Positions 14,742 through 53,261 of a DNA stretch of 64,000 nt are shown here, in pieces (position 1 is the stretch's first letter; every line of letters begins with the position of its first letter). The position numbers were made by a program, and so were the translations under genes. Origin of the DNA: an uncultured Gammaproteobacteria bacterium (GTDB lineage Bacteria > Patescibacteriota > Patescibacteriia > UBA1558 > UBA10009); NCBI GenBank assembly GCA_964588165.1, contig CAZPMS010000002.1:105839-169838 (forward strand), read 5' to 3'. The notes under the pieces were generated by a model. The model had not been told where the DNA came from and searched no databases. It saw only the letters and a program-made list of their open reading frames with translations.

Positions 14742-14817
14742 GGTCGTGTAGTTCAGCGGTTAGAATGCTTCGTTCACATCGAAGAGGCCCCTGGTTCGAA
14801 TCCAGGCACGACCACCA
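14742..14817 (+). tRNA. tRNA-Val (anticodon CAC)
   Basis: acceptor ggtcgtg/cacgacc, anticodon stem-loop cttcg-ttcacat-cgaag, T-arm cctgg-ttcgaat-ccagg, CCA encoded. Confidence 0.85.
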
Positions 14818-21583: not shown

Positions 21584-21592
21584 AATTTATTT

Positions 21593-24500: not shown

Positions 24501-27500
24501 TCTTTAAAACCAAAACTGTAGATTCCCAGTGTGATGTTACTGATGTTATGGTTAATCCGGCACAAAGGATAGTTGATGCTTTAATTCCAGAAAACAATAA
24601 CCCAGTTTATTTAGATGAACAGGTTTGGTATGACTCGTTGGCTTATAATTCAGCCAATTGTAATGTTTGTCCGGATGTTTATGAATGGTCCTGGAGTTCT
24701 TCCCAACCGTCTCAGGCTAATATAGACGAAACATCAATAATCAACAGCAGCTTACTTTCGGCCGATGCTTATACTAACCTCGGTGAACATGCTGTTATCA
24801 CAGCCGTAGCCGTAAATGCAACCAGCACACCTTCGGGCACTGCCGAAGTGGATATTGTGCCCAGGAATCCGGAAATAGTTTATCATTGGGAGTGTACGCC
24901 AGAACCGCAAACCCCCAGCCCTTGGCCAGGCACCGAAGAAGCCTGCATTAATGCCAAGATAGCTGTTGAGTTTGATACAATTATGGATCCGGCCACTACT
25001 TTAAATATAAATAATATATCAGTAACTTATGATAGCGGTTTTGGCTGGCTTGATATATCGGGTTCCTTGGAGGGCCTATATGGAACCAGAGGAGATTTAG
25101 CCGGTTTAGTAGGCCTGGTATTTACTCCGGATAGTTTTATGGATCCTGATAGCTGGCATGAAGTTATTTTAAGTTTTGATATTTTAAGTGCGGAAGGGGG
25201 AAGTTTAACAGGCACTAACAGTTGGCAATTTAAAACTAAAGATAGTGATGAAGTTTGCTCTATTACACAAGCTATAGTTGATCCTTCATCCACAATCTTA
25301 ACTGCCGAAGGCGCTACCGAAAATTATACAGCCTTTGGCCAAGGCGAAAGTTGTGAGCTGGTGGTAAATCCAGATTTAAATTGGTCATGGAATAGTGAGG
25401 ATAATCAAGTGGCTGCAATTTTTGCAAGTAATAATGATGAAGCAGTTGTTATTGCCAATAACGAAGGCCAAACTTATATTAGGGCAGAAGCTAACGGCAT
25501 TCAAAATGAAGGTAATAATGGTTTGGTAACCGTTAATTATGGCCCAGGACCAACAGCTTTTGAGATAACTGAAAATCTGCCGGTTGGTGATGATGTTTGT
25601 TTAAATGCCCAGGGTTTAGTTAGATTTAATTTGAGCTTAGATCAAGAAAGTATTGCCACTGAAAATTTTGAAGTTTGGCAAGAAGCTGAAAGGTTAAGTT
25701 ATTGTGAAGATAATCCGGATATAAATTGTACCAGTGATATTGATTGTTCTGGAACATTTTCAGGCAAGTGCCAAGCCGAATGGACAGTTAGCAGCAGCGG
25801 GCCAAGAACGGCTATAGATATTTTACCGACAATAAATGATGGCCTGTGGAATCCCGGATCTGATTATTCTATCAGAGTCTACGGCGGCGGTTTGGGAGTA
25901 ATTTCCGATTCAGGAGAACAGCTAATTCAAGAAGGCTGTCCGCCAAGCATGTCTTGGAGCGAGGCCGGCCAGTATTGTTATTGGGATTTTAAAACTGCCG
26001 GAGAAATTTGTGCCATAGATAACATTCAAATAGAACCTGCTTCTGCCGCTACCACCGTAGGCATGATAGTAGATTGGCTGGCAACTCCTTATGCCCAAAA
26101 TGGCAATCCTCTTTCCAATGAGCTTGATAGGTGGCGCTCAGAAAATGTTTGGTCGCCTAATAATTTATTGGTAGCTGATGTAGAGGCTACTTCGCCAAAT
26201 GGGCACCAGGCCTCTTCTTTGGCTTTAAATGTTGGCAGGGCTTTAATTTTTGCCGGCGCCCCGATAGAAGCAGGCAGTGAAGAAATTATCTGGGGTTCTG
26301 CCGATTTGCAGGTGCTAGAAGAATTTAATGGACCAGAAGTAACCGATGTGCAGCCTCAACCGGGCGAAGAAGATGTTTGCCGCAACAGCTTGATTAATAT
26401 TGGCTTTGATCAGTTTATTAATCCGGCAACAGTAAGTAACAGCACTTTAAAGGCAGAATATTTGTCTACCGAATATTCAGAAGGCTGCTACGAAGTTGAT
26501 ATGGGCGGTGAAATAAGTTTTTATAAAAACTATAATAATGTTATTTCTAAAACTTTAGCTTCCAGGCTGTTTAATTGGTTTTCGGCTAATATTTTAAATC
26601 GGCTGATCGGTCCGGTAAAAGCCCAAGTAACTAATTATATGTGTCCTGTTCAAGGCACTCGGGAATTGGTAAATAATTTATATGATAGCGAAGTCAAGTT
26701 TAGTCCGGCAGAAGCTTTTCCTGCTAATTCAGAAATAAATGTAATAGTTGTTGGCGGGGATAACGGCATTAAAGGCACCAATGGCCTGCCTTTGGAAGGA
26801 GATGGTTTAGATGAAGACGGAAATTATTCATACAGTTTTACCACAAGGGCAGATATTTGTACTTTAAGCATGGTCAGTGTAGTAGCTGATGAAGCAACAG
26901 GAGAAAGTGAATGGGTATTTACCACCAGTTTTGATAATCTTGATGACAATGATCCTGATGATTTGGCAAATTTTGATACTATTTATGATGGTGATAAAAA
27001 ATATACAGCTTCCGGTTACAGCCTTGAAGGTACAGAACTTTTTCCAATAGAAGGAGTTTATGAGTGGGTCTGGGATTGGAGCAGTAGTGATACTAATATA
27101 GCCAGCCTTGCTTACGCCGCTGATGATATTTCGGTAGTTAGTGTTAATAATATTAAAACAGGCCAAAGCGATATTGTGGCCGAGGCGGTTTTCCCTAATT
27201 GGTATAACCAACCCAATCTGCCAGGTTCAGGTTTGGCTATTGTTAATTTATGTGAAAATCCTTGGCCGGCAGTTGTTTCTGAACAGCCAGAGCAATTTAT
27301 TGATGATGATTTTAATTTCGGGCTTTCTTATTGCAGGGATGCTGGTGGTTTAGGAACAGAAGATGATCTACCAGCTCTAAATGTAATTGATTTTGTGGAG
27401 AACAGCCATCTGCCTACAGATCCGGCCGAAGATGAATTATTAAAAGAGTATTTAATACCAGTGCCTACCACCGGAGATTTAATTGGATTAAGGATTTATG

Positions 27501-30500
27501 AAAATTCTTTCCACTTATCACCTTCAGATTGGTATAAAAAGAACATAGCTGTTCAGGGCTTTCCAAATAGCACTTTAGTGGATGGTTATAAAGCTATTGT
27601 AGACGGCAGGACAACTTATGTTGCAGCCTCTGATGTAGAATCACTAACTGAAGAAGACCCTTTGGCTTATATGCTACCGAGTAAAGGTTCAATAATTTCA
27701 AGAGTTGTTAACAATATCTGGCAAGGTTTAAAAGAGTTTATAAATAATTCTTTATTTACTGTGAAGGCGGCAGAAGGCGAAGATGAAGAATCTGAAGGTG
27801 GTTATAAGGTAACCGGAATTGAGGGCGGTTATACAGATATTTTTTTACTTTCTTATAATCAAGGAGCCAGGCCGGAAACTTTAGAAATAGTTAACCAGCT
27901 TATTGAAAGGTGGAATTTTAATACTAATGTAGATAATCCTAAAATTAAAGAAAAAATTATTAGAGATGTAGAAAGATTAAGCCATTTAAATTCTATTGCT
28001 GGGAGCCTGGACCAATATCAGTTAAGCCATGAAGGCACTTTTCCAGCCTTAGAGGCCGGCACTTTTTTAAAAACCATGAGTACCAGCAAATGGCCTTCTT
28101 GGAACGAAACTTTGGGATCAGAACTGGGAACAATTTTACCATTTGATCCAACCAATAAATTTGGCGCCTGTATTGATTGCCAGGAACCGGAATTAATTAA
28201 TCCTGGCTTTGAGGATGACCCTGATTCATTAGTAGGCTGGGCAAATGTTGGCGTTGTAACAATGGAAGTTAATACCGATCCAGATTATGTTCGTGAAGGC
28301 AGTCAGTCCGCTTTTGTTATATCGCCTGTTGTTCCTGAAGATGGCATTAAGAGCAGTAATATACCAGTTATTACCAACACTACTTATGAATATTCTGCTT
28401 GGGTTTATGTTGAGCATCCAAACAGGGTACAGATTAGAAATCTTTCTTATCCACGGTCGGGTAATGAGTGGTTTACTCCGCCCGATTACACTGGCTGGTT
28501 TCAGTTAAAAGACAGGTTTACAACTTCGGATGTATCACCAGTTAGGATACAAATTGTCTCATATGGGGGCCCAGCCACTTTTTGGGTGGACGAGGTTTAT
28601 ATTGGCACCTCTAATGGCAACTGCGGTTATGACCTAGAAACTTGCTGGAATCCCGAGGCAAATTTTGGTACTGGGGCTTTTGCCTGCGATGCTGATTCAT
28701 ATTTTTACCGCTATCAAGGAGAAATTGATTTAGATTCAGAAGTAACAAATTATACTTTAGCTGCTAAATTGGAAACAACTACCAATTGGTATCCTAATAA
28801 CATTGGCGATAATTATTATTTAGATCCCCATTTGGTTATTAGCACTAATAATGTTTTAGGCTGTGATGCCAACATTTTTGCCGGTTTTTGCGGCGACTCC
28901 ATTGTCCAAGAACCAATAGAACAGTGCGAACCGGGCAATTCATATTATTTATGCAGTACAGATATTTTGTGGTACACCCCGGCCGGCAGCGGTCCTTATG
29001 GCTGTTTCCCTGCAGGTGATCCTAATCAGTGCAATTGGTATAGCCCATTACTTGATTCAGATGATGAATGCTACGGTTTAAGTTCATCCCAATGTTGTGG
29101 TGGCTATTGCGGTGACAGTGTTTTAAATACTGCAGCCGGAGGCTATCTTTTAATAGATGATGAAGAATGCGAATTAGGAGTGGGCGGTTATGGCGATGGT
29201 ACGGCCGAAGATGAACAGTATTCTTGTTCTGGCAGTTGCCAGGATGTTGGCGGTTGGTGTGGCGACGGTTCCATTCAAACCGGTTATGGCGAAGAATGCG
29301 ATGGCAGCACCAGTGGCTGGGATTGTTTGGCATCACTTGTTAATCCAACTTGTAATACTTGTGAGGTAGAATGCTCAGAAGGCAATCCTTACCAGGGAAC
29401 TTGCGGCAATAATACCAGGGAAGCTATAGAAATATGCGACGGAACGGATAATGGCTATCCTAATTCAACCTGTATAGAATATTGTTCTGATGTAGAATGT
29501 GTAGGTAGTTGGCAGGCTTGCGATGGCAATCGTTTGGATTATAACGGCTGTGAAACTGATACTGATAACGATCCAAATAATTGTGGAACTTGTTTAAATA
29601 ATTGTCCTGGCCCTGTTGGCGGCAATGGCTATGCAGAATGTGAATCTGGAGGCTGCACAATTGTTTGTGACCCCGGTTATGATCTTGTGGGCGACGAATG
29701 TGTTTTAGTGGCTATTTGCGGTAATGATATTATTGAAGGCGGTGAAGTTTGTGATGATGGCGCAAACAACGGCAACTTTGGCTATTGTAATGCCACTTGT
29801 GATGGAATTGAAGGTTTGGGCGATGCTTTATTTTATGATAATTTTGAAGACTGGAATTTTACCACCAGTAATTGGGAAGAAGGCTATAATTATAATGGTC
29901 CTGGCGGTGGAGAAATTTGGTCAAGATCTTTGCCAGGCGGGGGGATAAATTACAAATTAAAATCAGAAATTAATAATGTTGCCCCTAATTTCCCCAGAGA
30001 TTTCAGGGTAACCAATGCCAATGCCAATAATTTATTAAATGTAGATATATTGGTAATGATAGATTTTAGCTATTCAGCTGATGATGATGCTGTATTATTC
30101 GCTAGGCATAATGGCCAAAATCATTATATGGATCAGGAATATTATGCTTTGTGGAATGACCATAATAGTGAGATTCAAATAATAAGAGTTGGGCCTGATG
30201 GATATCATGATGAAGACTTAGCAAGCACTTTTCCCTTAACAAGTGGTATTTATTGGTTACAGTTTAAAGTTTTTGATGTAGGAGGTAATATTAGACTTCA
30301 AGCCAGATGGTGGCCAGAGGGTACCGAAATGCCGGCTGCCTGGAATTTTGATATAATAGATAGCTCTGAAAATAAAATTACAACTTCTGGACAGGTAGGA
30401 GTTGCCGGTTGGATGAACTCAACTTTTTACTTTGATAATTTCCAAGTTTATGATGCAGATGTTGTTGCCGAGCCGGTTCCGGATGAACCAGCCTATATCT

Positions 30501-31051
30501 CAGCTGTAGCCACTTCGCCTACTTCCATTAATATCCAGTGGGAGGATGTTTCAGCTGACTATTACCAATTAGTTGGTAAGGCGGGCAGTTGTAGCGGCGA
30601 TTTTGATCCGGTTGATAGTGATATAATAACCAATGAATATGACCATACTTCTGGTCTTTTTCCGGAAACAACTTATTGTTACCGGGTTAGGTCTTGTAAT
30701 AGCCTAGATCAGTGTTCTGGCTTCACCATGCCTGGCGATCAGGCAACTACACCGGCTATGCCACTGGATCCTCCAAATAATTTAATAGGTAATTGGGTTG
30801 ATTATGATAATTTTACAGGCACCTGGGATGAAGTAGATGGGGCTGATCATTATGTAGCTAGAATACAAAATAAAAGAAACACTAATTGGGGTCCATGGGA
30901 AGCCTTAATAGAGACATTTTATACTAATGCCCAATGGTCCGAGGGTAGCGGCATATATGGTAATACCAATACAGTTAAATTTCAGGTAAAAGCTTGTGAT
31001 ATAAATGATGTTTGTTCAGCCTATATTGAAAGTGATCAATATAGTAGATAA
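21593..31051 (+). CDS. giant (3152 aa) multi-domain cell-surface adhesin: VirB2-like N-domain, GEPGDP collagen-like linker, 4 IPT/TIG domains, CBM4/9-like module, Cys-rich CGDG/CDDG repeats, ConA/LamG-like domain, 2 FN3-like domains
   Basis: single uninterrupted ORF; domain calls from sequence motifs (TIG: PxVxSVxPxxGxxGGxxVTIxGxxFG; CBM4_9: NPGFEDD...GWANVG...YEYSAWVYV; MXCR-like: ICGNDIIEGGEVCDDGANNG). Confidence 0.8.
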   Translation: MNLKPKTKIIFMGLLLLVVAILLVPQLAFAQASLGVEVGADTGLGSRDLKEVIVAVVQIFLGFLGIVAVIVLIYGGYIWMTAGGSPDKVEQGKRIVINVAVGLVVILISFAVVTFIANVISDATGSEPGEPGDPGEPGDPTVESFIVQSIQPRGEQSIRNIVVQIAFNENVDASSLISRPDSVVVAKSNGLGGFDRVNGVLELAAGNPKKVLFTPSTPCPSPNEDLFCFDYDAINPDLNVHQVEVSGDGAASLKSVSGKTVTCTLDSCLAEFSTGPLVDIEDPEVALTEAIDLADQVFILTNGVSLSADELYQLYADATDDGGITGVDFYLDGDYIGFDTPVGDAPLNFTAQIIPDWHTDGLELNQNYYLTSRAYDVAYNETLSDSVRVVIRPAHCFNDVIDPDLGETGLDCGGPCPACEGESCGELVGEICTNPDNNACASGLCDTETCYCVPAPQVSSVDPDNGASGNWVTILGSHFGDEIGTVTIGGETANSPPDILCPSSWQDSQIIIELPELDLGNQQLQVTTSEGLNSNFYDFLINDTERPGICSVAPAEGKFEDSFQVDGIQFGEDYMERDVYFGRPDDPISAFNPSWSLVGDYGRVVADVPNLLKGNTGVRVRVEGESSNVLAFTVLESAHEEVRIDYFTPESGADGQYVTIFGSGFGNYVPGESLVKFSTDKEGSLDFPDECGTNFWTDTQIVVKVPNTEEVGELDDQGPITVITASEDLAVSSQNFLYTPVADVAPGICSLFPQEGTIGSTFSVAGEGFEDSTLYLNDLSFVDAPVNDNYYEDVMVPEGSESGPVKIVKDVLESNTIDFEVTADAPDEPELPSDYYQWQFTTCQDCLVPEVVEIGSCWFSLASPTPLKNSQDNYSDTLISATFNTDMDDSLFELGTTILLAECGDAESPGICNPITVAGDFEFGLSGSDYEYFTLDLDDSLNLNTWYRATLTNLKSNLEQIAMEDDYQWFFKTKTVDSQCDVTDVMVNPAQRIVDALIPENNNPVYLDEQVWYDSLAYNSANCNVCPDVYEWSWSSSQPSQANIDETSIINSSLLSADAYTNLGEHAVITAVAVNATSTPSGTAEVDIVPRNPEIVYHWECTPEPQTPSPWPGTEEACINAKIAVEFDTIMDPATTLNINNISVTYDSGFGWLDISGSLEGLYGTRGDLAGLVGLVFTPDSFMDPDSWHEVILSFDILSAEGGSLTGTNSWQFKTKDSDEVCSITQAIVDPSSTILTAEGATENYTAFGQGESCELVVNPDLNWSWNSEDNQVAAIFASNNDEAVVIANNEGQTYIRAEANGIQNEGNNGLVTVNYGPGPTAFEITENLPVGDDVCLNAQGLVRFNLSLDQESIATENFEVWQEAERLSYCEDNPDINCTSDIDCSGTFSGKCQAEWTVSSSGPRTAIDILPTINDGLWNPGSDYSIRVYGGGLGVISDSGEQLIQEGCPPSMSWSEAGQYCYWDFKTAGEICAIDNIQIEPASAATTVGMIVDWLATPYAQNGNPLSNELDRWRSENVWSPNNLLVADVEATSPNGHQASSLALNVGRALIFAGAPIEAGSEEIIWGSADLQVLEEFNGPEVTDVQPQPGEEDVCRNSLINIGFDQFINPATVSNSTLKAEYLSTEYSEGCYEVDMGGEISFYKNYNNVISKTLASRLFNWFSANILNRLIGPVKAQVTNYMCPVQGTRELVNNLYDSEVKFSPAEAFPANSEINVIVVGGDNGIKGTNGLPLEGDGLDEDGNYSYSFTTRADICTLSMVSVVADEATGESEWVFTTSFDNLDDNDPDDLANFDTIYDGDKKYTASGYSLEGTELFPIEGVYEWVWDWSSSDTNIASLAYAADDISVVSVNNIKTGQSDIVAEAVFPNWYNQPNLPGSGLAIVNLCENPWPAVVSEQPEQFIDDDFNFGLSYCRDAGGLGTEDDLPALNVIDFVENSHLPTDPAEDELLKEYLIPVPTTGDLIGLRIYENSFHLSPSDWYKKNIAVQGFPNSTLVDGYKAIVDGRTTYVAASDVESLTEEDPLAYMLPSKGSIISRVVNNIWQGLKEFINNSLFTVKAAEGEDEESEGGYKVTGIEGGYTDIFLLSYNQGARPETLEIVNQLIERWNFNTNVDNPKIKEKIIRDVERLSHLNSIAGSLDQYQLSHEGTFPALEAGTFLKTMSTSKWPSWNETLGSELGTILPFDPTNKFGACIDCQEPELINPGFEDDPDSLVGWANVGVVTMEVNTDPDYVREGSQSAFVISPVVPEDGIKSSNIPVITNTTYEYSAWVYVEHPNRVQIRNLSYPRSGNEWFTPPDYTGWFQLKDRFTTSDVSPVRIQIVSYGGPATFWVDEVYIGTSNGNCGYDLETCWNPEANFGTGAFACDADSYFYRYQGEIDLDSEVTNYTLAAKLETTTNWYPNNIGDNYYLDPHLVISTNNVLGCDANIFAGFCGDSIVQEPIEQCEPGNSYYLCSTDILWYTPAGSGPYGCFPAGDPNQCNWYSPLLDSDDECYGLSSSQCCGGYCGDSVLNTAAGGYLLIDDEECELGVGGYGDGTAEDEQYSCSGSCQDVGGWCGDGSIQTGYGEECDGSTSGWDCLASLVNPTCNTCEVECSEGNPYQGTCGNNTREAIEICDGTDNGYPNSTCIEYCSDVECVGSWQACDGNRLDYNGCETDTDNDPNNCGTCLNNCPGPVGGNGYAECESGGCTIVCDPGYDLVGDECVLVAICGNDIIEGGEVCDDGANNGNFGYCNATCDGIEGLGDALFYDNFEDWNFTTSNWEEGYNYNGPGGGEIWSRSLPGGGINYKLKSEINNVAPNFPRDFRVTNANANNLLNVDILVMIDFSYSADDDAVLFARHNGQNHYMDQEYYALWNDHNSEIQIIRVGPDGYHDEDLASTFPLTSGIYWLQFKVFDVGGNIRLQARWWPEGTEMPAAWNFDIIDSSENKITTSGQVGVAGWMNSTFYFDNFQVYDADVVAEPVPDEPAYISAVATSPTSINIQWEDVSADYYQLVGKAGSCSGDFDPVDSDIITNEYDHTSGLFPETTYCYRVRSCNSLDQCSGFTMPGDQATTPAMPLDPPNNLIGNWVDYDNFTGTWDEVDGADHYVARIQNKRNTNWGPWEALIETFYTNAQWSEGSGIYGNTNTVKFQVKACDINDVCSAYIESDQYSR

Positions 31052-41096: not shown

Positions 41097-42497
41097 ATGA
41101 AATTATATAATACTCTCACTCGCAAAAAGGAAGAATTCAAACCTTTAAAAGGTAAAAAGGTCAGTTTATATTCCTGCGGGCCGACTGTTTATAACTTTGC
41201 TCACATTGGCAACCTTAGAACTTATATTTTTGAAGATATTTTAAGGCGGGCTTTGGAATTCAATAATTATAAAGTAAAACAAGTAATGAATATTACAGAT
41301 GTCGGTCATTTAACCTCAGATGCTGATAGCGGTGAAGACAAATTAGAAAAAGGCGCAAAAAGGGAAGGCAAAACTGTTTGGGAAATTGCTGAATTCTACA
41401 CCAAGGCTTTTAAGCAGGATCTTAAAGATTTAAATATTTTAGAGCCTCATAAATGGGTTAAAGCCACTGATTGCATCAAGGATCAAATCAAATTTATTAA
41501 AAAGTTAGAAAAGAAGGGTTTAACTTACAAAATATCAGACGGTATTTATTTTAATACTTCAAAATATCCTGATTATCCAAAATTGGCCAAGTTAAATTTA
41601 GAAGGCCAAAAAGAGGGTGCCAGAGTAGAGGCTAACAATGAAAAAAAGAATCCAACCGATTTCTCGGTTTGGAAGTTTAGCTATCCGAACGGGAGATCTT
41701 TCGACTCCGCTCAGGATGACGCCTCAAAGAGGCGTCAGATGGAATGGAACAGCCCTTGGGGTAAAGGATTCCCGGGTTGGCATTTGGAATGTTCGGCCAT
41801 TAGTTTAAAAAATTTAGGCAAGGAGTTTGATATTCATACTGGCGGAATTGATCATATTCCAATTCATCATACTAATGAACGTGCTCAAAATTGGGGATTA
41901 GTAGGAAAAGAGTCAGTAAAGTTCTGGATGCATGGAGAGTTCCTAATTATAAACGAAGGTAAGATGGCTAAGTCAGAAGATAATTTTATCACTCTTCAAA
42001 CTTTAAAAGATAGAAACATCAATCCGTTGGCATATAAATATTTTGTATTGCAGGCCCATTACAGATCAAAACTTAATTTTAGTTGGAAAGCTTTGGAGGC
42101 CGCACAAACAGGTTATAATAATTTAATCAGAGATATCAAAGGTTTAGAAAGGCCTGGGAAAGCTTGCAGTAGCTGTAAAGAAAGATTTTTAAAAATTATT
42201 AATGATGATCTTAATACTGCGGAAGCCTTGGCTTTGGTTCAGGAATTGTTAAAGTCAGATAAGCCTTCTTCTAAAAAACGTCAGACCATTATTGAATTTG
42301 ATAAAGTTTTGGGTTTGAATTTGAATCAATATAAACAAGAAAAAGAACCATCAGCTGAAGTTAAAAAGTTAATAGAAGAACGTCAGCTTGCGCGTAAGAA
42401 TAAAGATTATAAAAAATCTGATGAGTTACGTCAGCAGTTAGAAGAACAGGGGATTAGGATTAAGGATTTGCCGAATGATGGATACGAGATAGAATAA
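41097..42497 (+). CDS. cysS: cysteinyl-tRNA synthetase with 15-aa in-frame insertion
   Basis: 466 aa; [13 protein letters not shown] (HIGH), KMAKS; extra [15 protein letters not shown] segment between WK and SPWG. Confidence 0.9.
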
Positions 42498-42553
42498 ATT
42501 GAGTTTATTAAAAAACAGCCTATCAAACTGACAGACTGTTTTTTAGTTTTTGT

Positions 42554-43246
42554 TTATTTAGTAAATTCAAAAGTGTTTAGTATTTCGTCCAGAGCGGAAA
42601 AGTCATTATTTCCCCCAGCAATTTGGTTGATAGTGCCCAGATTATTCCAGCCTTCGGGGATTGATGTAAATTCTATTTTAGTTCTGGCAGTAGGAATGTT
42701 ACCGCCCCAGTTCTGATTAGAGTCGGGAGTGTAAATAGTTTTAAGAGCAGATTTTTCATCTATTATAATATTTTCCTTGTTTTCATTCCAGATACCATCT
42801 TGAAATAGTACATAATTGCTTAGTGGACTGACAATAAATTTTTCGTCATCATTTTCTATTATTATATAGATGTACTTAGAATCATCCGGGTATGTTCCAG
42901 ATTTTTCTGACAAAATCCAGCTATTTGGATACTCAAAACTGAAGTTATATAAATCATTTGTGTAAACTTTCCAATTAGATTGTTCATCATCAGAACTATC
43001 TACAGGTTCGTTAGTATTTAATTCATCTTGTTTTACTTGAGTTTGCTGAAGCTGACTGATTTGGTTTTGTAATAAGGTGATTTCTTGCTGAAAGTTTTTT
43101 TCAGTTGTTTTTAAATTTGAATTTTGCCAAGCATAAACACCGCCGCCAAATATTAGAGCGGTAATTACAATTGAAACAATTATAACCCAGGGGTTTTTTG
43201 AGCCTTGGATTGGTTCTGGTGTTGGCAACTCGTTTTGTTCATCCAT
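42554..43246 (-). CDS. hypothetical membrane-anchored protein with coiled-coil
   Basis: 230 aa; N-terminal TM, Q-rich coiled coil. Confidence 0.45.
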   Translation of the reverse strand: MDEQNELPTPEPIQGSKNPWVIIVSIVITALIFGGGVYAWQNSNLKTTEKNFQQEITLLQNQISQLQQTQVKQDELNTNEPVDSSDDEQSNWKVYTNDLYNFSFEYPNSWILSEKSGTYPDDSKYIYIIIENDDEKFIVSPLSNYVLFQDGIWNENKENIIIDEKSALKTIYTPDSNQNWGGNIPTARTKIEFTSIPEGWNNLGTINQIAGGNNDFSALDEILNTFEFTK

Positions 43247-43316
43247 AATGAATTTTGTTAAGTAATTATAAGTTTAATTTTAGCTAATAATAGTAAAAAA
43301 ATCAATATATTAGTTA

Positions 43317-43459
43317 TTGACAAAATATGAAATATATGATAAATTTAGGCGTATTTTAAGTAAACAGGACTTTGACAAAGTAGTTAAAAACACCCCAAAA
43401 TGGGGCTTTTCGCGGAACGCAGAGTAGCAAAAAGCTACCTGCAACAGGAGATTGGATTG
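43317..43459 (+). repeat. duplicated promoter/5'-leader, copy 1 (~90% identical to 45226-45360)
   Basis: ttgacaaaatatgaaatatatgataaat...aacaccccaaaatggggcttttcgcggaacgcag...; contains extended -10-like TGaTAAAT and a small hairpin. Confidence 0.75.
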
Positions 43460-45148
43460 ATGAAACGATTCACACTCAGTATTCTTGTGATCGCCATGCT
43501 GGCGATGGTTGTTGGTGTTCAGGCCGAGCCGATTTATCTCGGTACTGTGGACAAGAGTGAATTTATCCAGCAGGGCCAAACCGGCGAACTGGATGAGATT
43601 ATTGACCCCGAGATAATAGGAGGCTATTTGTTTGAATGCTCTATCAGCCATCAAGGATTATTTTATTCGGCTTGGCTTGATAACGGCCAAGGAGTTCCGT
43701 TTGCTATAAATCTTGCTTGTTTTTCACAACAAGAAGGTGAGCCTTTTGAACTTTGGAGGATGGAGATTGATTTAGATGGAAGAAGTGTTATACCTCATGA
43801 TATATTAGTTCACAACGACCAGATTTTTATTCTAGCTGAAGTTGAAGATGATGGTTATTATCTTTCTTTGATAAAGGTGGAGAATCAAGAAGTTGCTTCA
43901 ATCGCTCTCACTGAACGCGATCTTAGTTTTAGATTCCATTTTTCCTCAAATCTAGTTTTGGGTGAGGATGGGACGGCATTAGCTTATTGGGCATTAAGAA
44001 GTGATAGTTTTGTCACTTGTATGGTCATTGATCTTGACGCCTTTGTGCCAGTAGCTCATTCAATTGTGTTAGATATTACTTATTTGGTAGTTGACGATAT
44101 AAATTCTGGTTGCGAAACTAGGCCGTCTTTTGTAAACGGCGCTTGGACATTTTTTGCTAATAATGTAACGAGAGATTGCGAGCTAAAGGTGGTCGTTTGG
44201 CCTAGTGGGCTGGCAGAGCAAACGATAATTTGGGACGGAATGCTCGTCGGCGCGTCCTTTATAATGGAATACCCAGTAGGCTCTTTTTTTAGGACTCTTG
44301 GCCGGGGTTATAATGATCCCGGTACTTGGTTTATTCAGGATCGTACTTTATCTGGGAATTTTTTAAGGCAGACAGAAATTTGTGGGGCTTCTGAGGGGCT
44401 TTCGCCTAAGTATTCTCAAATAAATAATAATATTGCTTTTATCCAACAAAGCAGCGTGTTTGAGCCTGATTATTTCAATTATATTATTATTATAAACGAT
44501 CAAAGCCAGGTAAGTGTTGTTCCTTTAGCCTTTGATCACATGCATCGGCTGTCTTCTAATATAGCCTGGCTTGAGGGAGAAAGGTTGGCTAATATAAGAG
44601 TAGTCGAAAGCGCGGGTGGCTATGAAGTAGATGAACTTGTTTATGTTGAGTTGTCTGCTGACGGTCAAGTAATAAGGCAGATGACTTTAGCACCATATCT
44701 TGCGCCACATACTGTTTACAATGAGGAGTATTGGTGTACTTCGATAATCCAGCCAGCAGATGACGGTGGGGCCTGGGTTCTTTGGGAAGAACCCTTAAGT
44801 GAGGAGCAATATTGGTTTTCCAAGTTATATCTTGAATATGTTGCTCCACCGGCTCCTAACCAACCAACCCCATCAGTAAACACCGAACAGGAACAGTTCA
44901 GTGTTCATCCTAACCCATTTAACGCTTCTACGACCGTTACAGTCAATCTACCACAGGCAGGTAAGCTGAAGGTAAACGTCTTTGACGTTCTGGGTCGTCA
45001 GGTTGCAGAGTTGGCCAATAGTCAGCTCGAAGCTGGCCAACATCAGTTCACGCTGGACGGTTCAAATATGTCCAGTGGCATTTACTTCGTCCGTGCGAAT
45101 ACGATGGATGGTTTGCATGATGTTCGCAAGATCATTTTGATGAAGTAG
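43460..45148 (+). CDS. secreted protein with T9SS type-A C-terminal sorting domain (Por_Secre_tail-like); higher GC than surroundings
   Basis: start chosen at ATG 43460 with SD aggaga (track start 43400 lies in duplicated leader); signal peptide; C-terminal HPNPFNASTTVTVNLPQAGKLKVNVFDVLGRQVAELANSQLEAGQHQFTLDGSNMSSGIYFVRA...KIILMK. Confidence 0.7.
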   Translation: MKRFTLSILVIAMLAMVVGVQAEPIYLGTVDKSEFIQQGQTGELDEIIDPEIIGGYLFECSISHQGLFYSAWLDNGQGVPFAINLACFSQQEGEPFELWRMEIDLDGRSVIPHDILVHNDQIFILAEVEDDGYYLSLIKVENQEVASIALTERDLSFRFHFSSNLVLGEDGTALAYWALRSDSFVTCMVIDLDAFVPVAHSIVLDITYLVVDDINSGCETRPSFVNGAWTFFANNVTRDCELKVVVWPSGLAEQTIIWDGMLVGASFIMEYPVGSFFRTLGRGYNDPGTWFIQDRTLSGNFLRQTEICGASEGLSPKYSQINNNIAFIQQSSVFEPDYFNYIIIINDQSQVSVVPLAFDHMHRLSSNIAWLEGERLANIRVVESAGGYEVDELVYVELSADGQVIRQMTLAPYLAPHTVYNEEYWCTSIIQPADDGGAWVLWEEPLSEEQYWFSKLYLEYVAPPAPNQPTPSVNTEQEQFSVHPNPFNASTTVTVNLPQAGKLKVNVFDVLGRQVAELANSQLEAGQHQFTLDGSNMSSGIYFVRANTMDGLHDVRKIILMK

Positions 45149-45173
45149 AACTTGTTCTTTACATGATTTATTT

Positions 45174-45207
45174 AACCGCGTTTCTCAACAGAGAGATGCG
45201 GTTTTTT
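45174..45207 (+). terminator. rho-independent terminator (ccgcgtttctc...gagagatgcgg + T-run)
   Basis: hairpin plus tttttt; homologous terminator after the second gene. Confidence 0.55.
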
Positions 45208-45225
45208 CTTTGCTATTGACAAAAT

Positions 45226-45360
45226 ATGAAATATATGGTAAATTAATACGTATTTTAAGTAAACAGGACTTTGACAAAGTAGTTAAAAAACACCCCAAAA
45301 AGGGGCTTTCCGCGGAACGCAGATAGTCTAAAGAGACATCTGCAACTTGAGGAGAAGTCG
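45226..45360 (+). repeat. duplicated promoter/5'-leader, copy 2
   Basis: see copy 1. Confidence 0.75.
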
Positions 45361-47199
45361 ATGAACCGGATCTTTACTGTTATTTTTGCAATCGTCATGA
45401 TGATGGCGATTGGTTTTTCAGTCAATGCGACTGAGGCACCTGATTTCAGTTGGGATTACACCATACAGAATGGTGAGTCAGACTGGGCCAACAGTGTCAT
45501 TCAGGCCGAAGATGGTGGCTATCTCGTCATCGGTAACTCAAGTTCATTCAGTCCGAACGAACAAGCCAACCTTTACCTCCACAAGATCAATGCGGAAGCC
45601 GAGTTTGAGTGGGAGGTCGCGCTTGGTGGTGATCTTCATTACTACTCCGGCCTGCATGGAATCCAAGCCGAAGATGGTGGTTATGTTATAACTGGTCAGA
45701 GGCACGAAGGTATCGGAGGCTCGTCAGATTTGGCTTTGATGAAAATTTCAGCAAACGGCCAGGGGATTTGGGAGCAAGTGTTTGGTAATCCGAATATAAC
45801 CGAATATGGGAGCTATGTTCAGCAAACTGCGGATGGTGGTTACATTGTAACCGGTACAAGCTATGCTGAGCAGTTCGACCATGTCTTGGTACTTAAGACA
45901 GATACCAACGGTAACGAGATTTGGGCCAATGTATATCTGGGACATCACGGTGAATCTATCCGTCAGACTTCAGACGGAGGCTACATTTTGGTTGGTGATG
46001 TTTCGGGGCAAAATTCGGACGTTCAAATCCTGAGGCTTGATCCGAACGGCAATGTTATTCGGCAGGATATTTTTGGTGGCGGTAGTTTTGACCATGCCTA
46101 TTCCATGGTTCTGACCGACGAGGACCACTGTGTAGTAACGGGTTCGAGTCAGACCGGCGGTGATCCTTCCAGGGTTTGGTTGTTTGAGGTCGATTTGGAT
46201 GGTCAGATGGTTTGGGAGTGTTTATATTCCGAACTTGACCTAAACGAAGGTTGTACTGTCCGATCGACCGAAGACGGCGGATATGTAATTTCGGCAGTTC
46301 GGTGGTATGGCCAGCTTGATACTGAGACTTCACTGGTCAAGACAAATGATCATGGCGGGCTGGAATGGACCAAGACATTTTATTTTATTGAAACCGGCCA
46401 TGCAGGAGACACTGTTCAGCAAACATTCGATGGTGGCTATATCGCTGTCGGTAACTACGAGATGGAGGATACTAATCATTTTATCAAAGTTTTCAAGCTT
46501 ACCGCTGAACTTCCTGATGTAACGGTTATTCTCACTCCTCACCAGGTTGATATTCAGATCCCTGCTGGCGGTGGTTCGTTCAATTTTGATATCGAAATCG
46601 CCAACGTTTCCGACGAAACACAGTACGTTGATGTTTGGACAGAGATTTATCTGCCCAGCGGATATACCTATCCGGTTCTGAGCCGTTCGAATATTGAACT
46701 GGCAGTCGGGGAGGTTATCACTCGTTCAAATCTTCAACAGATGGTGCCGGGCGGAGTGGCAGCTGGCGAGTATATGTATTTCGCTGTTGTAAAAGATCAC
46801 AACACTTGGGAGGTGTTGGATCATGACAAGTTCAGCTTCGTGAAGTTGCCGGGCAATGGGGTGGCGAGTGTTCAACCCGTGAACTGGCCGGGCTTTTCCG
46901 GCTGGGATGATATTGAAGTAACAAATCCAATTGTTACAGAATCCAAGCTTAGTTCGGTCTACCCCAATCCGTTCAATCCTACCACAACGGTCTCGATCAG
47001 TTTATCGCAAGCTGGGAATGTTCAGCTGGCGGTTTACAACGCGCTCGGCCGGCAAGTCGTAGAATTGGCCAATAGTCAACTCGAAGCAGGCGAGCATCAA
47101 TTCACTCTGGATGGTACAAACCTTTCCAGTGGAACGTATTTCATTCGAATGGACGCCGGTGAGACATCACGAACGCATCGGGTAATTCTGATGAAGTAA
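45361..47199 (+). CDS. secreted beta-propeller-like (DGGY repeats) protein with T9SS type-A C-terminal sorting domain; higher GC
   Basis: 612 aa; signal peptide; seven ~45-aa repeats each containing (E/A)DGGY; C-terminal YPNPFNPTTTVSISLSQAGNVQLAVYNALGRQVVELANSQLEAGEHQFTLDGTNLSSGTYFIRM...RVILMK. Confidence 0.75.
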   Translation: MNRIFTVIFAIVMMMAIGFSVNATEAPDFSWDYTIQNGESDWANSVIQAEDGGYLVIGNSSSFSPNEQANLYLHKINAEAEFEWEVALGGDLHYYSGLHGIQAEDGGYVITGQRHEGIGGSSDLALMKISANGQGIWEQVFGNPNITEYGSYVQQTADGGYIVTGTSYAEQFDHVLVLKTDTNGNEIWANVYLGHHGESIRQTSDGGYILVGDVSGQNSDVQILRLDPNGNVIRQDIFGGGSFDHAYSMVLTDEDHCVVTGSSQTGGDPSRVWLFEVDLDGQMVWECLYSELDLNEGCTVRSTEDGGYVISAVRWYGQLDTETSLVKTNDHGGLEWTKTFYFIETGHAGDTVQQTFDGGYIAVGNYEMEDTNHFIKVFKLTAELPDVTVILTPHQVDIQIPAGGGSFNFDIEIANVSDETQYVDVWTEIYLPSGYTYPVLSRSNIELAVGEVITRSNLQQMVPGGVAAGEYMYFAVVKDHNTWEVLDHDKFSFVKLPGNGVASVQPVNWPGFSGWDDIEVTNPIVTESKLSSVYPNPFNPTTTVSISLSQAGNVQLAVYNALGRQVVELANSQLEAGEHQFTLDGTNLSSGTYFIRMDAGETSRTHRVILMK

Positions 47200-47226
47200 A
47201 CTTTTCGAACATTATTCATTACACCA

Positions 47227-47261
47227 CACCGCATTTCTCAATAGAGAGATGCGGTTTTTTT
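47227..47261 (+). terminator. rho-independent terminator (ccgcatttctc-aatagagagatgcgg + T-run)
   Basis: hairpin + ttttttt. Confidence 0.6.
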
Positions 47262-47278
47262 GTTTAACTATTAAGGGC

Positions 47279-47299
47279 TAAGGATTAAGGATTAGAAGT
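47279..47299 (+). repeat. left inverted repeat AAGGATTAAGGATTAGAA of four-helix-bundle cassette (extra partial copy at 47394-47412)
   Basis: reverse complement present at 47800-47826. Confidence 0.65.
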
Positions 47300-47430
47300 T
47301 GAGATTGATTATTTTTTAATAATGATTTAGGATGATTATAAGTAATAAGGGTCATTTCGGATTTTTCCGGAGGGCCTTTTTTTATTTTAAGGACTAAGGA
47401 TTAAGGACTAATAATTAAAAAAATCAAAAT

Positions 47431-47799
47431 ATGGAATATAAATCGTTTAAAGAAGTGCCTATTTGGCAGAAAAGCGTCAAATTAATTGAAGCAGTTTATA
47501 AAATAACTAAAAATTTTCCTGAAAGCGAAAAGTTTAATTTAACAAGCCAGTTAAGAAGATCAGCTGTTTCAGTAGCCAGTAATATTGCAGAAAGTTGGGG
47601 CCGATATCACTACGCTGATAAAATTAGGGTTTTATATATTGTTCGTGGTGAAATAGAAGAAACTAGAAGTCATCTAGCTATTGCAAGAAAATTGAATTAC
47701 TGTTCAGAAAATAATTATCTAATTCTGGAAAAGTTTTATGAGGAGTTATTACATGACCTGAATAAGCATAAAAAGACATTAAATAGTAAAAATATATAA
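47431..47799 (+). CDS. four-helix-bundle protein (TIGR02436 / 23S rRNA intervening-sequence protein family)
   Basis: 122 aa; SQLRRSAVSVASNIAE signature. Confidence 0.85.
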   Translation: MEYKSFKEVPIWQKSVKLIEAVYKITKNFPESEKFNLTSQLRRSAVSVASNIAESWGRYHYADKIRVLYIVRGEIEETRSHLAIARKLNYCSENNYLILEKFYEELLHDLNKHKKTLNSKNI

Positions 47800-47826
47800 T
47801 TCTAATCCTCAATCCTTGATCCTCAA
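47800..47826 (-). repeat. right inverted repeat (ttctaatcctcaatccttgatcctcaa)
   Basis: RC = ttgaggatcaaggattgaggattagaa. Confidence 0.65.
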
Positions 47827-47831
47827 TTTTA

Positions 47832-51125: not shown

Positions 51126-51270
51126 TAATTTGCTATAAATAGAAATTTAGTGTAAAATATTTATACTATGAATATAATTCAAAAAAGCCAAAATTGGTGG
51201 AATATGTATCTTCCTTTTCTACGGGTGGCTTCTTTGGATGTTTAAATACATTATTTCCTCTTAAATAAAG

Positions 51271-51299
51271 AATCCTCCCAGAGAAAAGGAGGATTTTTT
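51271..51299 (+). terminator. rho-independent terminator (aatcctcc-cagagaaaa-ggaggatt + T-run)
   Basis: perfect 8-bp stem + ttttt. Confidence 0.65.
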
Positions 51300-51321
51300 G
51301 TTCTTTACGCCAGGAGGAATT

Positions 51322-51420
51322 ATGTTCAGCAAAAGAAACAAACCTGAAACATCAGATGATTCAAACCAAGAAGAAACTACTGATGATTTTGATTTTCTTA
51401 GAGGTTTTTTAGGCTGTTAA
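51322..51420 (+). CDS. small acidic peptide ORF, 32 aa (MFSKRNKPETSDDSNQEETTDDFDFLRGFLGC)
   Basis: SD aggagga 5 nt upstream; below ORF-track cutoff. Confidence 0.3.
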   Translation: MFSKRNKPETSDDSNQEETTDDFDFLRGFLGC

Positions 51421-51442
51421 CCGTAAGAAGGAGAGGTTTTTT

Positions 51443-51598
51443 ATGGACGGTAAAGATTCGATTGTTCCAAGTGTACAGCCAGAAGGGGGTAATTCGTCTG
51501 ATGAGCCAAAAATGGCCAGTAAAGATGGTTTAGCGCCAGAAGTTCCTTTGGAAAACCCGCCCAAAAATCATCAACCCTACGCTAGTTGGGAAGAGTAA
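51443..51598 (+). CDS. small protein ORF, 51 aa
   Basis: SD aaggagagg upstream; followed by terminator 51611-51637. Confidence 0.4.
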   Translation: MDGKDSIVPSVQPEGGNSSDEPKMASKDGLAPEVPLENPPKNHQPYASWEE

Positions 51599-51610
51599 GA
51601 TTTGTTTCAA

Positions 51611-51637
51611 AAGCCAGGCACCAGCTTGGCTTTTTTT
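51611..51637 (+). terminator. rho-independent terminator (agcca-ggcaccagct-tggct + T7)
   Basis: hairpin + ttttttt. Confidence 0.55.
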
Positions 51638-51641
51638 CTTG

Positions 51642-51671
51642 AACCAGCCCTTCGCGAAGGGCTGGTTGACA
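51642..51671 (+). repeat. perfect 11-bp-stem GC hairpin fused to TTGACA (aaccagccctt-cgcg-aagggctggtt-gaca); family member also at 55823-55856
   Basis: read directly. Confidence 0.7.
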
Positions 51672-51945
51672 ATATTTTTTCTCCTTGCTAAACTTTTATT
51701 AATCACTATGAATAATCAAAAAAGCCAGAGTAAATCACAGATTATGGTACAAAATGTCTTTTTTGGTTTCTTTTTTAGCTAGCTATCTGGTGGTTAGACG
51801 TTTTTAAATAAATAGAAACAGTAAATCTAGTCACCGGATAGGTGGCTTTTTTAGTTGTTCAAAGATTCTATTTTCTAATTAATCAATTGGAAAACTCAAT
51901 TTTTGAACAATTCAATAGTTGCAAAAGTTAACTGGAGGTGTATTA

Positions 51946-52157
51946 TGTCTACCAGACAACCACAAGTAGATAAGCAAGCAGAACAGATAAGTGATCAAAG
52001 GAGGAACGACCATGGAATCAACGATAATGGAGAGATGGGTAGTGAGACTGCAAGTTTTATTCCTGTGTCCCCGAATACTTTTCACCACCAAGCTACTTTG
52101 GTGAGTGGGATTGATCCTGGTTACGACTGGGAAAACCATAAACATCGGCCTTGGTAA
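51946..52157 (+). CDS. small hydrophilic protein ORF, 70 aa (start at internal ATG with SD ctggagg; track ORF 51903-52157)
   Basis: SD 7 nt upstream of ATG 51946; strong terminator follows. Confidence 0.45.
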
Positions 52158-52160
52158 CAC

Positions 52161-52216
52161 ATTTTTCGGACAGGATCCAAATTCAAAAAAGGTTCCTGTC
52201 CGAACCTTATATTTTT
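52161..52216 (+). terminator. strong rho-independent terminator (ttcggacaggatcc...ggttcctgtccgaa + T-run)
   Basis: 14-bp stem with one mismatch. Confidence 0.65.
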
Positions 52217-52367
52217 TAGAAAATTTAAATATTTTTAAAGCGGCAGAGTTTGCCTCAACTAAATCCGGTTAAGGACTAATTGAGACTAAAGACTCGTGCC
52301 GCTTTTTTATTCGTAACAAATTTTTATAAAAAAGTCAAGGTATTTTTTTTATCAACGTTTTAATTGA

Positions 52368-52396
52368 TTTGACACTTTTTTAGAATATGATAAAAT
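52368..52396 (+). promoter_or_regulatory. promoter TTGACA-16-TAAAAT
   Basis: ttgaca, 16-nt spacer, taaaat. Confidence 0.5.
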
Positions 52397-52560
52397 TATT
52401 CTTGATATGAAAACAGCCACCGAAAATATATCAAGAATAACAAATCTAAACATCTTAGATCTTATTTTAGCTATTATTATTTTAATTCCGCTGATGGTGG
52501 TCAGTTAATTCGTTTTATAAGTACTTTATATAACGCTGACCACCGGTCAGCGTTTTTAGT
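52397..52560 (+). promoter_or_regulatory. structured leader with alternative antiterminator/terminator pairing (attenuator- or riboswitch-like)
   Basis: 5' hairpin attcttgatat/atatcaagaat; segment ccgctgatggtggtcag (52489-52505) complementary to left arm of terminator cgctgacc-acc-ggtcagcg+ttttt (52537-52560). Confidence 0.4.
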
Positions 52561-52696
52561 TTGTTTAGCTACGCTAAACAAACTACCCTGAGCGAAGTCG
52601 AAGGGTTTAAAGTCTAATATAAATATTGGACGCCAGATAAAAAGAGTTTGTCGTTTAGTCAAAAACATAGTGAAAGAACCAACGGAGGATAGTGTC

Positions 52697-52840
52697 ATGT
52701 GCACAAAATGTGGTCATCCATTACAGCCAGTTATCATTTCTATTGAATCTCTTGATCCGGTAAACGGAGCCAGTGGCCCAACCGTGGACAGGTGTGTTAA
52801 TCCTAAATGTGAGAGGAATTACAAAAAGGTTGAAAAGTAA
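52697..52840 (+). CDS. small zinc-ribbon protein ORF, 47 aa (CTKC...CVNPKC)
   Basis: SD aacggagga 7 nt upstream; terminator 52855-52893 follows. Confidence 0.45.
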   Translation: MCTKCGHPLQPVIISIESLDPVNGASGPTVDRCVNPKCERNYKKVEK

Positions 52841-52854
52841 AATCAACCTTAATC

Positions 52855-52893
52855 ATTAAACCGTTCTCAATTTTGAGAGCGGTTTTTCCTTTT
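52855..52893 (+). terminator. rho-independent terminator (accgttctca-attt-tgagagcggt + T-run)
   Basis: hairpin + ttttt. Confidence 0.55.
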
Positions 52894-53261
52894 TTAAAAA
52901 TATGATATAATTAAAGAGCCCTACCAATAAAGGCAACAGATTGGAGCTCTACAATCCTATTGGAAAGGGAGTTCGTATAAGGATAAACCGTGGTTTATTC
53001 TTGAGAATACCCATCGGTCGCAACTTAATTGCTACAAGTAAGAAAAGTTATATCTTTGCTAACTGCTAGCTATTAGGTGACCAGTTTGTTTACCAGGAAC
53101 TTCCAATCTTAGCCATTTTGGCTAGGGCTTTAAGTTAGAAAAACTGGCTCTTTTAGTCAGTTTTTTGTAACAAATTAAGGTTTTTTACGTCTTAATTAGT
53201 GCAAGGAGCTATCACCAGGCTTGTGTTTAAGCTATTTAAAAGCTCCTTTTTTTATCTAAAT

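Follow-up and report, generated by a model that had tools for sequence, protein, structure and literature searches.

Two cargo genes with type IX secretion sorting domains between cysS and comEC of a Patescibacteria genome

In this study, we focus on two adjacent genes, here named P1 and P2, which lie on a 64,000-nucleotide (nt) stretch of DNA from an uncultured bacterium (contig CAZPMS010000002.1 of GenBank assembly GCA_964588165.1, positions 105,839 to 169,838). This stretch is referred to as the window, and all coordinates are window positions unless another contig is named. The products of P1 and P2, of 562 and 612 amino acids (aa), respectively, both end in a type-A C-terminal domain (CTD) of the type IX secretion system (T9SS). 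Such CTDs are treated as a reliable marker of diderm secretion of the type found in the Fibrobacterota-Chlorobiota-Bacteroidota (FCB) group, and the Patescibacteria, or candidate phyla radiation (CPR), to which the present genome belongs, are described as lacking an outer membrane. We consider it probable that P1 and P2 represent a horizontally acquired, expression-competent foreign module from a T9SS-bearing donor of the FCB type, whose products would be exported by the Sec pathway and whose CTDs would not be used in the canonical manner. The locus is a real but isolated oddity rather than an assembly error, and it adds new divergent members to the T9SS-CTD cargo proteins and to the DGGY-repeat propellers in an unexpected host.

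The identity of the sorting domains, proposed in a first-pass annotation of this DNA, was borne out by profile searches. With curated cut-offs of 27 bits for PF18962 and 23 bits for TIGR04183, the CTD of P1 scored 45.5 and 43.2 bits and that of P2 (residues 533-609 of 612) scored 50.9 and 49.5 bits, respectively, and both matches end three residues short of the stop codon. Both open reading frames (ORFs) are intact, and each product begins with a Sec-type signal peptide recognized by inspection: MKRFTLSILVIAMLAMVVGVQA with predicted cleavage before EP in P1, and MNRIFTVIFAIVMMMAIGFSVNA with predicted cleavage before TE in P2, where the structure model places a helix at residues 2-17. Gene callers took the ATG at 43400 as the start of P1; the ATG at 43460 is the one in keeping with the Shine-Dalgarno (SD) sequence AGGAGA and the signal peptide, and the codon at 43400 is replaced by AAG, with stop codons after it, in the second copy of the leader described below.

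The host of these genes is a Patescibacterium. All named ComEC homologues belong to Patescibacteria, the best being 79% identical, and the host DNA inspected, which comprises the window and about 10 kb beyond each of its ends (about 84 kb of the genome in total), carries a typical CPR housekeeping set; synteny with metagenome-assembled genomes (MAGs) of Patescibacteria, giant surface proteins of the T4SS-pilin type and an LCP-family enzyme further back the assignment. CysS proved a poor marker here (best match 58%, lacking synteny, in a scan of one genome per species), and ComEC was used instead. The gene order FtsA-FtsZ-NrdR...PrfB-CysS-ComEC-MBL-RR-NDK is kept in two clades of relatives, P0134 (L089-L091), with ComEC 79% identical to that of the host, and P0140 (L094 and L095), with ComEC 73% identical, and in both clades cysS and comEC are separated by only 42-56 nt holding a terminator hairpin. 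Because cysS directly abuts comEC in these relatives, the 5.3 kb found between them in the host is a lineage-specific insertion, which contains a minus-strand gene for a 230-aa protein, P1, P2 and a 23S_rRNA_IVP/bAvd-like gene.

Codon usage also sets P2 and part of P1 apart. Host ORFs have a G+C content at third codon positions (GC3) of 0.309 +/- 0.048 (maximum 0.411) and a synonymous-codon log-likelihood of -0.978 +/- 0.046 (minimum -1.057), compared with 0.374 and -1.173 for P1 and 0.484 and -1.293 for P2 under host usage. P2 is foreign in every segment when set against length-matched host windows (z -3.3 to -8.2), and so is the P1 CTD (z -5.8), the last 82 codons of P1 reaching a GC3 of 0.50, like P2. 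Codons 1-480 of P1 are only mildly deviant (z -1.6 to -3.1), with GC3 values of 0.27-0.39 that fall within the host range and with TTA, AGA and ATA used almost as in the host. Since the P1 passenger is near-host and the P1 CTD foreign, P1 is compositionally mosaic, and the initial claim that both genes deviate in GC and codon usage holds for P2 and the P1 CTD, whereas the P1 passenger deviates only mildly. GC by itself is not diagnostic: contigs of relatives span 0.31 to 0.44 GC, and a rise in GC at 21-30 kb of the window (GC3 0.314) is caused by amino-acid composition and not by foreign origin.

Horizontal acquisition from a T9SS-bearing lineage, likewise put forward at first pass, is supported jointly by the Patescibacteria host, the empty site in relatives, the foreign codons and the non-CPR homologues. 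The P2 family and the closest CTDs are found in WOR-3, Zixibacteria and other non-CPR contigs with many T9SS cargo genes, one of which also carries PorV. The best CTD matches, 55% and 49% identical, lie on contigs of 0.55-0.59 GC, and the contig with the closest P2 homologue (40%), 3.5 kb long and of 0.43 GC, has an upstream region unlike that of P2. The acquisition had also been called recent, which holds only relative to the relatives at 73-79% ComEC identity, but no donor closer than 40% identity was found. Low-GC contigs with similar CTDs were considered as possible further CPR genomes, a reading rejected for the two that were checked, L152 carrying PorV, cellulases and dockerins, and L138 carrying LacI and chorismate-pathway genes. 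The closest CTDs occur on contigs with three to five Por_Secre_tail genes in tandem, and on donor-like contigs neighbouring cargo genes share CTD-coding blocks of about 240 nt at 79-88% identity while their passengers differ (L103, 1295-1537 and 2337-2579; L105, 4037-4286 and 6014-6263; L165, 3351-3588 and 6010-6247; L111, 4006-4249 and 6022-6265), suggesting that the CTDs of a cargo array evolve in concert or are shuffled among its genes. Modular sharing of gene ends is therefore usual for T9SS cargo genes. In the literature searched, nothing linking the T9SS or its CTD with CPR/Patescibacteria was found beyond incidental co-mentions.

An assembly chimera or contamination that fused FCB DNA into a CPR contig, one of the readings initially entertained, would account for the abrupt shift in codon usage and for a domain that makes no sense in this host. 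However, three independent assemblies share the left junction and five share the right one, at 100% or 99.99% identity to the window, with JGI, ENA-derived and Logan pipelines and five different samples represented. Furthermore, the flanks run on into host-type AT-rich intergenic DNA, and neighbouring genes within the window are found on larger contigs of 108-181 kb. Because both junctions are identical across assemblies of several samples, a chimera is very unlikely.

Each of the two genes forms a unit consisting of a sigma-70-like promoter, a structured leader of about 105 nt, an SD sequence, a signal peptide, a passenger, a type-A CTD and a terminator, with promoters and terminators identified as consensus and folding matches. 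Promoter 2 lies only 8 nt past terminator 1, so that the layout is leader-P1-terminator-leader-P2-terminator. The leader repeat (43315-43445 and 45214-45346) is 89.6% identical over 134 aligned nt with four gaps and begins exactly at the -35 box TTGACA, at 43317 and 45216. The duplication of about 90% reported earlier thus stands, with the second start, given as 45226, being about 10 nt late. A 28-mer of the leader was found at two places in the window and no others, where 0 occurrences would be expected. The hairpin terminators (45175-45207 and 47228-47260) proved homologous as claimed, being 94% identical with stems of 12-13 bp and T runs.

Both leaders carry a perfect 13-bp palindrome (arms ACTTTG and CAAAGT around a central A; ACTTTGACAAAGT at 43369-43381 in leader 1) about 15-27 nt past the predicted start, and a CCCC/GGGG hairpin. 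In the minimum-energy folds, a CUUUYC motif pairs with the SD sequence in both (CUUUUC in leader 1, CUUUCC with GGAGA in leader 2), and a hairpin immediately 5' of the SD sequence, variable between the copies, has an outer stem GCAG/CUGC common to both and a different inner stem. Regulation by the leaders, through an operator-like palindrome and an SD-sequestering helix, is a prediction drawn from only two copies of these features. Rfam 15 gave no match over the whole window at gathering thresholds and none at E<=1 over 43250-43520, which covers leader 1, and nhmmer detected no homologues of the leader or terminator in 1.49 Mb plus 0.58 Mb of sequence from relatives, flanks and 83 donor-like loci.

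The two genes had been described as a modular duplication, and in this respect the shared leader, terminator and CTD type hold, but P1, with its orphan passenger, is not a simple sister copy of P2. Between the CTDs of P1 and P2, identity is 62% at the protein as well as the DNA level, with proportions of non-synonymous and synonymous differences (pN and pS) of 0.24 and 0.87, respectively. Because synonymous sites are saturated and pN is below pS, the separation of the CTDs is old and took place under purifying selection, which may have acted in the donor; the exception to this saturation is a patch of about 60-75 nt at 80-87% identity (ELANSQLEAG.HQFTLDG). Divergence of the leaders and terminators is less than one tenth of that at the CTD synonymous sites, which rules out a single old duplication as the explanation. 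Either these ends are strongly constrained, or they were copied recently, together with the CTD patch, by conversion or recombination.

The seven-bladed DGGY-repeat propeller attributed to P2 at first pass is confirmed by seven DGGY-type motifs, one of them degenerate, and by an AlphaFold2 model. This model, built from a 39-sequence alignment with a mean predicted local distance difference test score (pLDDT) of 85.8, contains 28 strands in residues 29-380 that form seven four-stranded blades, an Ig/FnIII-like sandwich at 387-495, a low-confidence linker and a CTD sandwich at 541-610 whose beta-strands have pLDDT values of 80-94. P2 has 3907 homologues, with E down to 4e-115 and a best identity of 40%. 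The family consensus comprises seven DGGY repeats of about 50 residues, an Ig-like domain and then the CTD, and the propeller-Ig-CTD architecture of P2 is common to 38 full-length homologues; family members with a named source belong to WOR-3, Zixibacteria and Caldipriscus. In archaeal relatives, PKD and PGF-CTERM take the place of the CTD, and no P2 homologues were found among viral contigs. Profile scores were 27.5 bits for DUF5122 (cut-off 27) and 24 bits for TIGR02608, which falls short of the cut-off of that model (76.5). The Foldseek neighbours of P2 include the CylK propeller, integrin alpha, the seven-bladed Photorhabdus lectins (PLL/PHL) and RbmA. A binding or adhesin-like role would fit these structural neighbours, and, as judged from the model, P2 is probably a binding protein of the lectin or adhesin type.

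The passenger of P1 (residues ~23-480) is an orphan: among 5.8 billion proteins, homologues were found for the CTD of P1 only, and a HMMER search of the passenger against 1.84 billion representatives returned one marginal match, a dockerin protein (E 1.6e-4). The single-sequence structure model of P1 is unusable (pLDDT 35.9), with only the CTD above pLDDT 65. Membership of the P1 passenger in the P2 family was considered and rejected, with an hhalign probability of 7% and no family matches; in a BLASTP comparison, the only match spanned 50 residues (E 3e-4). Sequence searches of the PDB with P1 and P2 yielded no matches. The coordinates of the module and of its surroundings are collected in Table 1.

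Table 1. Features of the cysS-comEC region in window coordinates.
Feature	Position	Strand	Details
Lineage-specific 5.3-kb insertion	42498..47831	.	Between cysS (end 42497) and comEC (start 47832)
230-aa lineage-specific protein	42554..43246	-	GC3 0.283, log-likelihood -0.959 (host-like); weak PsbP_2 match only
17-nt direct repeat, left copy	43294..43310	+	TAAAAAAATCAATATAT; 16/17 match to right copy
Promoter 1	43317..43345	+	TTGACA, 17-nt spacer, TAAATT, TG upstream
5' leader 1 (~105-nt untranslated region)	43346..43459	+	Folding z -3.2; SD AGGAGA
P1, 562 aa	43460..45148	+	Sec-type signal peptide, orphan beta-rich passenger, type-A T9SS CTD
P1 CTD	44903..45136	+	Residues 482-559/562; GC3 0.50
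Terminator 1, intrinsic	45174..45207	+	13-bp stem and T run; -19.7 kcal/mol, z -4.9
Promoter 2	45216..45244	+	Hexamers identical to promoter 1
5' leader 2	45245..45360	+	z -2.4; same palindrome at 45268-45280; CCCC/GGGG hairpin
P2, 612 aa	45361..47199	+	Signal peptide, propeller, Ig/FnIII-like domain, type-A CTD
P2 propeller	45445..46500	+	
P2 Ig/FnIII-like domain	46519..46845	+	
P2 CTD	46957..47187	+	
Terminator 2, intrinsic	47228..47260	+	94% identical to terminator 1; -19.3 kcal/mol, z -7.4
17-nt direct repeat, right copy	47416..47432	+	Ends in ATG of the IVP/bAvd-like gene
23S_rRNA_IVP/bAvd-like four-helix-bundle gene	47431..47799	+	PF05635 116.6 bits; GC3 0.221

The gene for the 230-aa protein, which is absent from the same site in relatives, and the IVP/bAvd-like gene, which is host-like in composition, both belong to the variable region but lie outside the foreign module. 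The two copies of the 17-nt direct repeat enclose both cassettes and a further 154 nt, and a 16/17 match was not reached in any of 300 mononucleotide shuffles; the repeat may be a recombination or insertion scar or a low-complexity coincidence. AAGGA-rich repeats bracket the IVP gene, as direct copies (47271-47294 and 47387-47410, 92%) and as inverted arms (47270-47306 and 47791-47827, 76%), and ATTAGGATTAAGGA, which is similar to these repeats, is found inside the 3' end of cysS (42453-42466); the IVP gene and the AAGGA-rich repeats look like a small mobile or recombinogenic unit. A diversity-generating retroelement, suggested by the bAvd-like neighbour, was considered and rejected: no reverse transcriptase is annotated, and the positions at which the P1 and P2 CTDs differ show no adenine bias.

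The cysS-comEC gap is a recurrent insertion spot in the lineage. In a third lineage of relatives (L092, L093 and L096), the gap holds a Y1_Tnp-like ORF of the IS200 type, which overlaps the start of comEC (9439-10011 in L092 and L093; 967-1554 in L096), and an IVP gene follows comEC in the lineage of L092. Separately, two assemblies of the closest relative have cysS split into two called ORFs of 256 and 199 aa (L089 and L090, 8585-9958), which suggests a frameshift, an internal stop or recoding. Elsewhere in the window, two tRNA-Met genes and a tRNA-Leu(CAA) gene are tightly clustered at 1521-1787, with a separate tRNA-Val at 14742-14817. Additionally, the 2 kb that separate ndk from an ABC transporter gene (51126-53198) hold only ORFs of at most 84 aa and have no Rfam match; a gene-poor stretch with small ORFs at this place is also seen in relatives.

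The following course of events is proposed. A foreign module of about 3.95 kb with two genes would have become lodged in the variable cysS-comEC gap of a Patescibacteria genome. If not the whole module, then at least P2 and the two CTDs would derive from a T9SS-bearing bacterium of the FCB type, where tandem arrays of CTD cargo are common. P1 and P2 would most likely be exported by Sec and then released or kept at the cell surface, with P2 acting as a lectin- or adhesin-like seven-bladed propeller and the CTD persisting as a folded Ig-like appendage. Given that the recipient is expected to be monoderm-like and that no T9SS genes occur in the DNA seen, the CTD would be unreadable by a T9SS there. 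In this scheme, we infer the direction of transfer and the donor class, Sec export and the signal-peptide cleavage sites, binding by P2 and the non-canonical fate of the CTD.

Several observations weigh against this proposal. Expression of P1 and P2 as well as their protein products are predicted from sequence alone, and the insertion (42498-47831) contains no integrase or transposase. No near donor was found, the best P2 homologue being 40% and the best CTD 55% identical. P1 may differ from P2 in origin, as its passenger lacks homologues and has near-host codon usage. The combination of 90% leader identity with saturated synonymous sites does not fit a simple en-bloc transfer of an old tandem pair, and the purifying selection on the CTDs may have acted in the donor rather than in the recipient. 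Finally, the roughly 84 kb of genome seen is too little to establish the absence of a T9SS.

This last point bears on whether the CTDs could be used canonically, in a host lineage that has an outer membrane and a T9SS after all. Only a fraction of the genome was inspected, so that T9SS absence from the host is likely and not established. No T9SS or outer-membrane biogenesis family, including SprA, PorV, PorU and GldK-N/PorK-N, is among the genes annotated in the inspected DNA; on the donor-like contig L152, used as a positive control, PorV was easily recognized beside a related cargo gene. The host DNA also encodes an LCP-family wall-polymer enzyme, and its native giant surface proteins use N-terminal anchors resembling T4SS pilins. 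Adjoining ORFs of 598 and 3152 aa (19787-31051) both begin with a T4SS_pilin/TrbC-like domain, followed by Big_5, TIG and CBM-like domains, and have native codon usage; these N-termini appear to be the host's own anchoring route for giant surface proteins. Together with the established description of Patescibacteria as devoid of an outer membrane, these observations leave canonical use of the CTDs extremely improbable.

Alternatively, the module might be a neutral, recently acquired passenger, functionless and heading for decay. This would agree with a sorting signal out of context, unameliorated codon usage, a variable spot with different inserts in relatives and an orphan P1 passenger that AlphaFold did not model, but P1 and P2 are uninterrupted and each is equipped with a good promoter, SD sequence and terminator, assemblies from several samples all show the same sequence, and the P2 model is folded with confidence; we regard decay without function as rather doubtful. 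Somewhat less probable still is co-option of the CTD in the CPR cell, either as a module binding the wall or S-layer or to engage the surface of a T9SS-bearing host, with the leader providing dedicated regulation. All type-A motifs are kept in both CTDs with scores well over the cut-off, CTD non-synonymous divergence is well under the synonymous level, leader conservation is far above that of synonymous sites, and P1 combines another passenger with the CTD, leader and terminator of the P2 type, like reusable cassette ends. Yet this selection may predate the transfer, CTD sharing among neighbouring cargo genes is ordinary in donor-type genomes, no further CTD gene or leader copy was found in the roughly 84 kb or in the syntenic regions of relatives, and the literature searched held no precedent. 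A quite speculative and improbable scenario is that an episymbiont captured T9SS cargo from its FCB-type host, with interchangeable passengers placed between a conserved leader and a conserved CTD-terminator end to interact with or mimic the T9SS-decorated surface of that host; in that event, the CTD would serve a purpose independent of a T9SS, and the genes would give a clue to which organism the host is. A foreign, expression-competent module with Sec-exported products and non-canonical CTDs remains the reading that we favour.

As a well-supported case of intact, promoter-equipped CTD cargo genes in a CPR genome, the locus indicates that the CTD marker can travel without its machinery, which matters for annotation-based inference of secretion systems in MAGs. 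It also represents a concrete, datable transfer of genes to an ultra-small and probably episymbiotic bacterium from a lineage that bears a T9SS, may hint at a physical partner of that bacterium, and supplies a candidate secreted protein of the lectin or adhesin type. Because only one locus of one lineage is concerned, the broader significance is modest, unless the CTD turns out to work there.

The locus can be compared with several known systems. Like the genomic islets found at variable spots of Patescibacteria genomes, P1 and P2 are absent from the corresponding site of relatives, deviate in composition and occupy a spot that holds other inserts; unlike these islets, their insert lacks an integrase or transposase, has only a 16/17 border repeat and carries cargo foreign to the envelope type. 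The predicted pairing of CUUUYC with the SD sequence and the 13-bp palindrome just downstream of the -10 box recall the SD-sequestering or operator-bearing leaders of bacterial surface-protein genes, although the P1/P2 leader has no Rfam family, is known from two copies and has a purely predicted function. P2 shares with the 'Delta-60 repeat'/DUF5122 propeller proteins of WOR-3, Zixibacteria and related candidate phyla a length of about 610 aa, seven DGGY repeats of about 50 aa, an Ig-like domain and a CTD, but no member exceeds 40% identity to it, its repeats show more degeneration than the family consensus, and it resides in a CPR genome. Compared with the type-A CTD cargo (TIGR04183/PF18962) of Bacteroidota and other FCB bacteria, the host is a Patescibacterium with no T9SS machinery seen and no outer membrane expected; therefore, translocon recognition, PorU cleavage and anchoring to anionic lipopolysaccharide (A-LPS) are not expected. 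In architecture, P1 and P2 nevertheless match this cargo, with a Sec signal, a passenger and a terminal beta-sandwich of about 75-80 residues, and they stand as tandem neighbours with related CTDs, as do the cargo genes on donor-type contigs.

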